A stretch of 29,412 bases of DNA. Origin: a virus (lineage: Duplodnaviria > Heunggongvirae > Uroviricota > Caudoviricetes). Each line of letters starts with the position of its first letter. Position 1 is the first letter of the stretch. Under the pieces are notes generated by a model. It had not been told where the DNA came from and did no database searches. It saw only the letters and a program-made list of their open reading frames with translations. The position numbers and the translations under genes were made by a program. The stretch lies in IMG/VR virus record IMGVR_UViG_2609459833_000001; one strand, written 5' to 3'. Shown piece after piece: positions 1-6,978 of the stretch.

Positions 1-705
1 ATGGGCGCTGCTTCGCAGACAGGCAGAACTTGATGGTATGCCTGCGATCAATGCCAAACGTGTTTACCGGATCATGCGCCAGAATGCGCTGTTGCTTGAG
101 CGAAAACCTGCTGTACCGCCATCGAAACGGGCACATACAGGCAGAGTGGCTGTGAAAGAAAGTAATCAGCGATGGTGCTCTGACGGGTTCGAGTTCCGCT
201 GTGATAACGGAGAAAAACTGCGAGTCACGTTCGCGCTGGACTGCTGTGACCGTGAGGCACTGCACTGGGCGGTCACTACGGGCGGCTTCAACAGTGAAAC
301 AGTACAGGACGTCATGCTGGGAGCGGTGGAACGCCGCTTCGGCAACGAGCTTCCGGCGTCTCCAGTAGAGTGGCTGACGGATAATGGTTCATGCTACCGG
401 GCTAATGAAACACGGCAGTTTGCCCGGATGTTGGGGCTTGAACCGAAGAGCACGGCGGTGCGGAGTCCGGAGAGTAACGGCATAGCAGAGAGCTTCGTGA
501 AAACGATAAAGCGTGACTACATCAGTGTCATGCCCAAACCAGACGGGTTAACGGCAGCAAAGAACCTTGCAGAGGCGTTCGAGCATTATAACGAATGGCA
601 TCCGCATAGTGCACTGGGTTATCGCTCGCCACGGGAATATCTACGGCAGCAAGCCAGTAATGGGTTAAGTGATAACAGGTGTCTGGAAATATAGGGGCAA
701 ATCCA
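1..705 (+). mobile_element. IS2 (IS3 family) partial copy: right-hand 705 bp including the terminal inverted repeat (...GGGGCAAATCCA ends at 705); element continues beyond window start
   Basis: Encoded protein matches IS2 OrfB/InsD as I recall it; terminus sequence TGGATTTGCCCCTATATTTCCAGACA (read inward) matches the IS2 right inverted repeat; sequence identity with the other window end stops exactly at 705. Confidence 0.9.
2..694 (+). CDS. insD: IS2 transposase OrfB/InsD, C-terminal portion (5' end lies outside the window)
   Basis: Frame from position 2 reads [31 protein letters not shown]...SDNRCLEI, the C-terminal part of IS2 InsD including the DDE integrase core; ORF track 38..694 is its internal-Met version. 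Confidence 0.9.
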
Positions 706-1031
706 AAGACATCATGCTCGGTAAAACGTATACCAAAGCAGAATGCAAAGCCCTCCTGAATAAAGACCTTACCACGGTCGCCAGACAAATTAACCCGTAC
801 ATCAAAGTCGATATACCGGAAACAATGCGCGGCGCTCTTTACTCATTCGTTTACAACGTGGGTGCTGGCAATTTCAGAACATCGACGCTTCTTCGCAAAA
901 TAAACCAGGGCGATATCAAAGGCGCATGTGATCAGCTACGTCGCTGGACATATGCTGGCGGTAAGCAATGGAAAGGTCTCATGACTCGTCGTGAGATTGA
1001 GCGTGAAATCTGTTTGTGGGGTCAGCAATGA
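706..1031 (+). pseudogene. Phage endolysin, T4-type lysozyme (GH24; DLP12 RrrD-like), 5'-truncated by the IS2 insertion
   Basis: Translation from the IS2 junction ([22 protein letters not shown]...[13 protein letters not shown]) matches the C-terminal ~108 aa of the ~165-aa RrrD-type lysozyme; the N-terminal ~57 aa with the catalytic residues are absent here. The first 12 codons of ORF 669..1031 are IS2-derived. Confidence 0.8.
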
Positions 1032-1485
1032 ACAGAGTAACCGCGATTATCTCCGCTCTGGTTATCTGCATCATCGTCTGCCTGTCATGGGCTGTTAATC
1101 ATTACCGTGATAACGCCATTACCTACAAAGCCCAGCGCGACAAAAATGCCAGAGAACTGAAGCTGGCGAACGCGGCAATTACTGACATGCAGATGCGTCA
1201 GCGTGATGTTGCTGCGCTCGATGCAAAATACACGAAGGAGTTAGCTGATGCGAAAGCTGAAAATGATGCTCTGCGTGATGATGTTGCCGCTGGTCGTCGT
1301 CGGTTGCACATCAAAGCAGTCAGTCAGTGCGTGAAGCCACCACCGCCTCCGGCGTGGATAATGCAGCCTCCCCCCGACTGGCAGACACCGCTGAACGGGA
1401 TTATTTCACCCTCAGAGAGAGGCTGATCACTATGCAAAAACAACTGGAAGGAACCCAGAAGTATATTAATGAGCAGTGCAGATAG
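1028..1485 (+). pseudogene. Rz: i-spanin Rz, frameshifted (4-bp deletion relative to lambda Rz near 1320)
   Basis: N-terminal 100 aa ([44 protein letters not shown]...RRRLHIKAV) match lambda Rz; the Rz C-terminal peptide [30 protein letters not shown] is present in another frame ending at TAG 1483-1485. Span 1028..1485 is 458 nt; lambda Rz (153 aa + stop) needs 462 nt. ATGA overlap with the endolysin stop. Confidence 0.8.
1248..1426 (+). pseudogene. Rz1: o-spanin Rz1 (embedded lipoprotein), disrupted by the same 4-bp deletion
   Basis: AAGGAG RBS at 1235-1240, ATG at 1248. Lipoprotein N-terminus [27 protein letters not shown] then a stop at 1332-1334; the proline-rich Rz1 C-terminus ([32 protein letters not shown]) is in the frame of ORF 1016..1426, fused to the Rz N-terminus. 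Confidence 0.7.
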
Positions 1486-1516
1486 AGCTGCCCATATCGA
1501 TGGGCAACTCATGCAA

Positions 1517-1810
1517 TTATTGTGAGCAATACACACGCGCTTCCAGCGGAGTATAAATGCCTAAAGTAATAAAACCGAGCAATCCATTTACGAATGTTTG
1601 CTGGGTTTCTGTTTTAACAACATTTTCTGCGCCGCCACAAATTTTGGCTGCATCAACAGTTTTCTCCTGTCCAATTCCCGAAACGAAGAAGTGATGGGTG
1701 ATGGTTTCCTTTGGTGTTACTGCTGTCGGTTTGTTTCCAACAGTAAACGTCTGTTGAGCACATCCTGTAATAAGCATTGCCAGAGCGGCAGAAAACAACA
1801 TTTTTTTCAT
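1517..1810 (-). CDS. bor: Bor lipoprotein (serum-resistance outer-membrane lipoprotein)
   Basis: 97-aa product MKKMLFSAALAMLITGCAQQTFTV...LEARVYCSQ with lipobox LITGC; close match to lambda Bor. Start chosen at MKKML (1808-1810 on minus) rather than the ORF-track start at 1858. Confidence 0.9.
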   Translation of the reverse strand: MKKMLFSAALAMLITGCAQQTFTVGNKPTAVTPKETITHHFFVSGIGQEKTVDAAKICGGAENVVKTETQQTFVNGLLGFITLGIYTPLEARVYCSQ

Positions 1811-2168
1811 CTTATTATCCTGCATTGTTAAAAACGGCAGAATCCTATGTGACAACAATTAAACGATAGTTAAATGGATTGATGAAAATTAAAACTATAT
1901 AGGTGGATGCTCAGCCTATTGGAGGAGGGGGCACTCAGAATCCTGTGGAATGAAATAAACCGCTCTTTCTGTCCATTACCCTTTTAGCTGCGCTGTATCG
2001 TCGCCGTATTCCCGCATTAACCATGACCGTAGCCCGACGGGGAATTCCTTCTGCGTGAGTGTGCGGGAATAATCAAAAACGATGCACACCGGGTTTTACT
2101 GTGCTGACAGACGCAGGGTTACCCTCATAGTCGCTTTTCCGGTGCGATGGTGGAAGAAACCGGGATGT

Positions 2169-2363
2169 TTATTCATCATCACTTTGGATTGATGTATATG
2201 CTCTCTTTTCTGACGTTAGTCTCCGACGGCAGGCTTCAATGACCCAGGCTGAGAAATTCCCAGACCCTTTTTGCTCAAGAGCGATGTTAATTTGTTCAAT
2301 CATTTGGTTAGGAAAGCGGATGTTGCGGGTTGTTGTTCTGCGGGTTCTGTTCTTCGTTGACAT
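2169..2363 (-). CDS. Small hypothetical protein, possible ribbon-helix-helix DNA-binding fold
   Basis: 64-aa ORF; a short basic strand (RNIRFP) followed by two predicted helices (NQMIEQINIALEQ / NFSAWVIEACRRRL) resembles Arc/CopG-type RHH proteins. Only a weak RBS; function inferred. Confidence 0.4.
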   Translation of the reverse strand: MSTKNRTRRTTTRNIRFPNQMIEQINIALEQKGSGNFSAWVIEACRRRLTSEKRAYTSIQSDDE

Positions 2364-2519
2364 GAGGTTGCCCCGTATTCAGTGTCGCTGATTTGTATTG
2401 TCTGAAGTTGTTTTTACGTTAAGTTGATGCAGATCAATTAATACGATACCTGCGTCATAATTGATTATTTGACGTGGTTTGATGGCGTAGATGCACGTTG
2501 TGATATGTAGATGATAATT

Positions 2520-2740
2520 ATTATCATTTTTCGGGTCCTTTCCGGCGATCCGACAGGTTACGGGGCGGCGACCTCGCGGGTTTTCGCTATTTATGAAAAT
2601 TTTCCGGTTTAAGGCATTTCCGTTCTTCTTCGTCGTAACTTAATGTTTTTATTTAAAATACCCCCTGAAAAGAAAGGAAACGACAGGTGCTGAAAACGAG
2701 CTTTTGGGCCTCTGTCGTTTCCTTTCTCTGTTTTTGGCCG
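2520..2740. other. cos: cos DNA-packaging site (cosQ-cosN-cosB); cosN 12-nt cohesive end GGGCGGCGACCT at 2563-2574
   Basis: Sequence GGGCGGCGACCTCGCGGGTTTTCGCTATTTATGAAAATTTTCCGG matches the lambda left end. Downstream inverted copies of GGAAACGACAG (2683-2696 and 2713-2725) match terminase-binding R elements of cosB, immediately upstream of Nu1. Confidence 0.85.
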
Positions 2741-2751
2741 TGGAATGAACA

Positions 2752-3271
2752 ATGGAAGTCAACAAAAAGCAGCTGGCTGACATTTTCGGTGCGAGTATCC
2801 GTACCATTCAGAACTGGCAGGAACAGGGAATGCCCGTTCTGCGAGGCGGTGGCAAGGGTAATGAGGTGCTTTATGACTCTGCCGCCGTTATAAGATGGTA
2901 TGCCGAAAGGGATGCTGAAATTGAGAACGAAAAGCTGCGCCGGGAAGTTGAAGAACTGCGGCAGGCCAGCGAGACAGATCTCCAGCCAGGGACTATTGAG
3001 TACGAACGCCATCGACTTACGCGTGCGCAGGCCGACGCACAGGAGCTGAAAAATGCCAGAGACTCCGCTGAAGTGGTGGAAACCGCATTCTGTACTTTCG
3101 TGCTGTCGCGGATCGCAGGTGAAATTGCCAGTATTCTCGACGGGATCCCCCTGTCGGTGCAGCGGCGTTTTCCGGAACTGGAAAACCGACATGTTGATTT
3201 CCTGAAACGGGATATCATCAAAGCCATGAACAAAGCAGCCGCGCTGGATGAACTGATACCGGGGTTGCTGA

Positions 3272-3297
<26 letters not shown>
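2752..3297 (+). CDS. Nu1: Terminase small subunit
   Basis: 181 aa, MEVNKKQLADIFGASIRTIQNWQEQGMPVL..., matches lambda Nu1; N-terminal winged-HTH; position directly after cosB. Confidence 0.95.

Positions 3298-6978
<3,681 letters not shown>

Follow-up and report, generated by a model that had tools for sequence, protein, structure and literature searches.

Loss of four nucleotides from a tetranucleotide tract in the embedded Rz/Rz1 spanin genes of an Escherichia coli lambdoid prophage

The window analysed here, a stretch of 29,412 nt that makes up the entire contig JNRV01000053.1 of E. coli 3-073-06_S1_C2 (assembly GCA_000704865.1), carries the right part of a lambdoid prophage. Its lysis cassette contains an embedded Rz/Rz1 pair of the lambda type, which has very probably (we would put the probability at about 0.9) been inactivated by a frameshift caused by the loss of 4 bases from a tetranucleotide tract. 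We regard the locus as a case of ordinary prophage decay, that is, as a pseudogenised spanin pair. The analysis nevertheless adds 2 small findings, namely, recurrent +4 and −4 length variation at a dual-coding tetranucleotide tract and a risk of misannotation of the resulting chimeric open reading frame (ORF).

A 4-nt deletion at the Rz/Rz1 overlap

By descent, the locus is a lambda-type two-component spanin locus: it is homologous to lambda Rz over the full length of the gene and occupies the position between the endolysin gene and bor, the same organisation as in lambda, phage 21 and the rzpD/rzoD pair of DLP12. It also shares with the lambda-type pair the ATGA overlap between the Rz start and the endolysin stop codon, the Rz1 start and the lipobox. 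From the ATG at position 1028 to the TAG ending at 1485, the window contains 458 nt, as had been stated in a preliminary description of this DNA, versus the 462 nt of Rz in lambda, phage 21 and DLP12-type prophages. The alignment to lambda Rz/Rz1, which had been proposed as a check, covers 462 columns, in which the 2 sequences differ by one 4-nt gap and 3 substitutions. When aligned to the prophage of E. coli AS19, the window displays the 4-nt gap and 0 mismatches in 489 columns, so that DLP12-type rzpD is matched with 0 substitutions outside the gap. The 4-bp deletion proposed earlier is thus borne out by the comparisons with both lambda Rz and E. coli AS19.

The alignments place the single gap after window position 1318, within a tract which in the wild type reads AAAG-CAGT-CTGT-CAGT-CAGT-GCG and in the window AAAG-CAGT-CAGT-CAGT-GCG; according to the alignments and the tract census, the remaining (CAGT)3 occupies positions 1317 to 1328. 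The earlier notion of a CAGT repeat therefore pointed to the right place for the deletion but needs to be amended with respect to the repeat itself, because the wild-type repeat is imperfect, being interrupted by CTGT. The missing unit is the interrupted one, which bears the TGT codon of Rz Cys99. Given that GTCT, TCTG, CTGT and TGTC are equivalent ways of writing the lost bases, the deletion occurred on a 3-nt microhomology (GTC), between 2 GTC triplets. The conversion of CAGT-CTGT-CAGT-CAGT into CAGT-CAGT-CAGT would most likely have proceeded through slipped-strand mispairing at replication. The frame arrangement of the window is not one that intact homologues natively possess: the 462-nt form overwhelmingly prevails, with the exact wild-type Rz protein being found on at least 1000 contigs, within a cluster of 6,844 members.

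The tract lies where Rz and Rz1 share DNA in different frames, so that a single event destroys both genes, and because 4 nt are missing from the shared segment, neither full-length spanin product can be made. Where a lambda-type pair produces full-length Rz and Rz1, the window contains 3 ORFs, all on the plus strand and each in a different frame (start mod 3 of 2, 0 and 1, respectively). The first (1028 to 1426; ORF list, Pfam and GenBank product KDZ59192.1) encodes a chimera of 132 aa that joins Rz residues 1–98, that is, the transmembrane domain and the first coiled coil of the inner membrane subunit (i-spanin), to residues 27–60 of Rz1, the outer membrane subunit (o-spanin); in Pfam, it matches positions 1–73 of 126 of Phage_lysis and 7–40 of 41 of Rz1. 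The second (1248 to 1334; ORF list) is a truncated Rz1 of 28 codons, compared with 183 nt for intact Rz1, and its product consists of residues 1–27 plus one alanine, thus comprising the signal peptide, the lipobox Cys20 and 8 more residues but neither Cys29 nor the penta-proline region. The third (1327 to 1485; 52 aa, Pfam Phage_lysis 76–126 of 126) is the out-of-frame C-terminal half of Rz, including the linker, the second coiled coil and Cys152; it encodes the last 51 residues of Rz, which are identical to the C-terminus of lambda Rz. This arrangement agrees exactly with the frames described previously, and the Pfam matches bear it out.

The exact 52-aa C-terminal fragment of Rz (P0015) has been called as a gene of its own on 163 contigs of up to 3.97 Mb, indicating that disruptions of Rz before approximately residue 102 are not rare in E. 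coli prophages.

Occurrence of the deletion allele and length variation at the tract

The exact chimeric protein was found on 5 contigs. The 12-nt tract is present in L006, from assembly GCA_966564195.1, which starts in the same IS2 copy at the same junction and shows 4 SNPs relative to the window over 10,848 nt; it is also present in a MEGAHIT metagenome contig (L009) with 3 differences from the window in 4,448 nt. That separate assemblies differing by SNPs share the allele indicates that it has been passed down in a lineage, as opposed to having arisen as an error of a single assembly. The only match in JGI metagenomes (L010) contains 10 gap openings in 766 nt and, being so rich in indels, is uninformative. 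The window allele was found in 0 of 5,426 complete E. coli genomes (RefSeq) and 0 of 50,697 phage records, and is absent from IMG/VR and from the GTDB species representatives searched; the wild-type tract is abundant in IMG/VR, among the matches listed.

Independent confirmation of the deletion was needed because the same apparent −4 change also seems to arise as an error. Metagenome contigs of approximately 3.4 to 3.6 kb in ENA carry the right end of lambda with its own Rz, many indels and, repeatedly, an apparent −4 (L013, ENA ERZ22171710 tig00195693; proteins P0004–P0011 and P0031–P0044), and L013 alone displays 14 gap openings in 1.9 kb when compared to lambda. We infer that these contigs stem from lambda DNA, perhaps a sequencing control, assembled from noisy long reads; the tract appears to be systematically miscalled in them. 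The gap in the window might thus be a sequencing or assembly artefact hiding an intact Rz/Rz1 pair, given that the window is a draft contig, that the site can be miscalled by some technologies and that the sole JGI metagenome match is also indel-rich. We nevertheless consider this very unlikely: the second genome assembly shares both the IS2 junction and the deletion yet differs by its 4 SNPs, the contig from a short-read metagenome has the allele 3 SNPs apart, and the window starts and ends within IS2 repeats, a feature that we read as the mark of a short-read assembly. Furthermore, 4-base deletions are, to our knowledge, atypical of short-read errors. In general, however, apparent Rz/Rz1 frameshifts at this tract call for confirmation at the read level.

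Public data contain 3 frameshifting length alleles of the tract, namely, CAGT×3, CAGT-CTGT-CAGT and CAGT×5, all of which are rare. CAGT×3 is also present on an infant-gut metagenome scaffold (L008) from a different phage in which holin and endolysin are intact and the 3′ end of Rz and the downstream genes differ from those of the window. Complete genomes hold counterparts of this haplotype that are 4 nt longer, the best at 99.0% identity, which favours an independent −4 event, with recombination as a less likely alternative.

The second −4 allele, CAGT-CTGT-CAGT, occurs on at least 6 Rz backgrounds (L137–L141, with the tract at L137:3283; proteins P0030–P0041), and was found in 0 of the 5,426 complete genomes and 0 of the 50,697 phage records. 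The assembly collection lists one of the corresponding chimeras, P0032, in 81 blocks, beside intact holin and endolysin genes, suggesting that spanin loss is tolerated for a while or, conceivably, is useful. The +4 allele, (CAGT)5, is present in 2 of the 5,426 complete genomes, both Korean, and in 3 further places (2 genome assemblies and 1 metagenome), with tracts at L003:2510, L014:3282, L015:3282 and L016:1386; in E. coli Z1323HEC0422, which carries this allele, the PGAP annotation labels rzoD ‘frameshifted’ and Rz ‘incomplete’. These other alleles (P0030 and P0032, −4; (CAGT)5, +4) resemble that of the window in affecting the same 16-nt tract, in changing by a 4-nt unit and in the loss of both genes, and the −4 alleles P0030 and P0032 leave the same truncated Rz1 peptide. 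They differ in the unit that was lost or gained and in the state of the cassette: holin and endolysin are intact there, whereas the endolysin gene of the window is cut by IS2.

Recurrence of +4 and −4 variants at one tract supports slippage, as had been suspected from the sequence of the window. Simple slippage should, however, act preferentially on the perfect CAGT-CAGT pair; the window instead lost the interrupted unit, on a 3-nt microhomology. Because (CAGT)5 lacks the CTGT interruption, a single insertion of 4 nt into the wild type would not produce it. A two-step route through a perfect (CAGT)4, corresponding to Rz C99S, would explain the uninterrupted alleles of 3 and 5 units, but it is unsupported, as this intermediate was found neither as DNA in complete E. 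coli genomes, phage records, IMG/VR and GTDB species representatives nor as the exact protein on 3 backgrounds. Tracts with at least 3 perfect units are present in 0 of the 50,697 phage records, and a full-text literature search yielded no description of the Rz/Rz1 tract. Collectively, the tract is a modest site of recurrent indels, the variants of which are rare and absent from phage records, as deleterious slippage products would be.

Predicted loss of spanin function and possible roles of the chimera

Lambda Rz consists of a transmembrane domain (residues 1–24), a first coiled coil (27–87), a linker, a second coiled coil (121–150) and a short C-terminal domain (Cahill et al., PMC5295617). 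Lysis is defective with nonsense mutations across its periplasmic domain, even at codons 151 and 152, and with nonsense mutations in Rz1 up to W46; the penta-proline (P5) stretch of Rz1, residues 32–36, is essential, and while the disulfide of Rz Cys99 is dispensable, function needs linkage through Rz Cys152 or Rz1 Cys29 (PMC5295617). In the window, the transmembrane domain, the 2 coiled coils and Cys152 of the i-spanin are split between frames instead of being encoded in one ORF of 153 aa. Similarly, of the elements of a functional o-spanin of 60 aa, which is encoded by an embedded +1-frame ORF (lipoprotein signal, Cys20, Cys29 and penta-proline), the signal and the lipobox are kept, with the stop following codon 28. 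Because the products of the window are devoid of the late elements that lambda genetics requires, both spanin subunits are predicted to be dead, in line with what had been anticipated from the frames and with the phenotypes of the lambda mutants (PMC5295617). In the proposed scenario, Rz would retain its membrane anchor and first coiled coil, with the second coiled coil and the C-terminus replaced by Rz1 sequence, and Rz1 would retain the lipoprotein signal but lose Cys29 and the proline-rich region. A periplasm-spanning complex would consequently not form, and disruption of the outer membrane, the last step of lysis, would presumably be lost.

Could the altered locus have acquired a role of its own? 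In the most elaborate version of this idea, the tract would have been selected in resident prophages to turn off both spanins in one step, and the chimera would be expressed and disturb the spanins of lambdoid phages that share the host or superinfect it, a scenario we consider very improbable. The Rz(1–98)–Rz1(27–60) chimera might be functional, either as a one-chain spanin or as a membrane-anchored decoy that blocks the spanin of other lambdoid phages. Such ORFs exist on several haplotypes, P0032 being widespread in assemblies and adjoining intact holin and endolysin genes, and the chimera keeps the C-terminal part of Rz1. In the wild-type spanin complex, this part of Rz1 contacts Rz. The chimera has, however, no second coiled coil, no Cys152 and no outer-membrane anchor, the latter because the lipobox belongs to the ORF of the other frame, which ends at codon 28. 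Even truncations of Rz at codon 151 are lysis-defective (PMC5295617). Moreover, neither of the −4 alleles was found in any of the 50,697 phage records, both being rare in comparison to the wild type, and expression of the chimera in the window is doubtful, because the ORF is separated from the late promoter region by IS2. A function for the chimera thus appears highly unlikely.

As a further possibility, phase variation would make the tract a reversible spanin switch, or else the frameshift might be rescued by programmed −1 ribosomal frameshifting. Consistent with these possibilities, the tract has lengths of 3, 4 or 5 units in nature, and the frame of the Rz C-terminus is −1 relative to that of the N-terminus and open from position 1261. 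By contrast, a phase-variable contingency locus is characterised by a long perfect tract, with both ON and OFF lengths being common in close relatives; here, the tract is very short, with 3 units in the window, the functional allele of 4 units is interrupted, (CAGT)5 is confined to 2 and the −4 alleles to 0 of the 5,426 complete genomes, and the perfect in-frame (CAGT)4 was not found in the collections searched. A switch at this tract is, accordingly, scarcely credible. Programmed −1 frameshifting can be dismissed, since inspection of positions 1261 to 1330 revealed no slippery heptamer of the form X XXY YYZ. The inactivated lambda-type pair described above therefore remains our preferred reading of the locus.

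Unimolecular spanins, exemplified by gp11 of phage T1, reach both membranes, since they carry a lipoprotein signal at the N-terminus and a transmembrane domain at the C-terminus (see also PMC6139136). The chimera resembles these proteins in that one chain joins elements which are separate in the two-component system. Unlike the unimolecular spanins, it has only an N-terminal anchor in the inner membrane: it begins with the Rz transmembrane domain, ends in the soluble C-terminus of Rz1 and contains no N-terminal lipobox. Because Pfam assigns it domains of both Rz and Rz1, the chimera might be mistaken for a new, fused spanin. The chimeric ORF has been deposited unflagged, as ‘bacteriophage lysis family protein’ (KDZ59192.1) and as ‘Spanin, inner membrane subunit’ (CAM3132773.1), the latter being the name that one depositor gave to P0032.

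Prophage context and the second lesion in the lysis cassette

The window begins with the 3′ part of an IS2 element of the IS3 family (1 to 705, plus strand), including an InsD-type transposase ORF (38–694; Pfam rve and rve_3) that matches the IS3-family/IS2 transposase of E. coli E9. It is followed by the 3′ fragment of an endolysin gene, rrrD, of the phage-21/DLP12 type (706 to 1031, plus strand; Pfam Phage_lysozyme 32–125 of 125), and then by Rz/Rz1. The lysis cassette ends at an intact bor/iss lipoprotein gene (1517 to 1810, minus strand; Pfam Lambda_Bor), which is placed as in lambda, phage 21 and DLP12-type prophages. The short stretch after bor includes a DUF3950 (ylcI-type) gene (2169–2363, minus strand). 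Further downstream are the lambda-type genes for packaging, heads, tails and tail fibres, present as a full set that extends from Nu1 (2752) to tfa (25873). From Nu1 through K (17437), the lengths of the genes equal those in E. coli strains 88-3493 and E9, and the ORFs beyond K (I, J, lom, stf and tfa) are long and uninterrupted.

At the right end of the prophage are a gene for a class I SAM-dependent methyltransferase (25928–26596, minus strand), a fragment of a tail-fibre-assembly gene (26653–26958) and an intact alpha/beta hydrolase gene (27142–28626, minus strand). Copies of this segment (25928–28626) that are approximately 99.9% identical are found in other E. coli genomes, beside ompT and envY. 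Because ompT is the next gene in the relatives, the prophage can be assigned to the DLP12 site.

The endolysin gene is cut by IS2 at a distance of 320 nt upstream of Rz/Rz1; the match to intact rrrD (498 nt) begins at window position 705, and the N-terminal third is gone. With IS2 in the endolysin gene and the deletion in Rz/Rz1, the lysis cassette has been broken twice, independently, and these are the only 2 lesions visible in the window. The insertion would by itself disable the cassette, with head and tail genes staying full length. Taken alone, the Rz/Rz1 deletion is therefore of little weight, being another decayed lysis gene where the endolysin is already interrupted. When we searched for the IS2–rrrD junction of the window in combination with an intact Rz, 0 complete genomes were found to carry the junction.

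The terminal segments 1–705 and 28708–29412 both belong to IS2 and are identical and inverted, with 0 mismatches over 705 nt, which in our reading reflects a short-read assembly broken at the repeat. The second copy is located approximately 80 nt upstream of the alpha/beta hydrolase gene, where ompT is next in the relatives. The inverted IS2 pair could flip the 28-kb prophage segment between the copies. A second case of IS2 in rrrD is provided by E. coli E9 (L007:5282–7115), in which an independent insertion lies elsewhere in the gene and Rz is intact.
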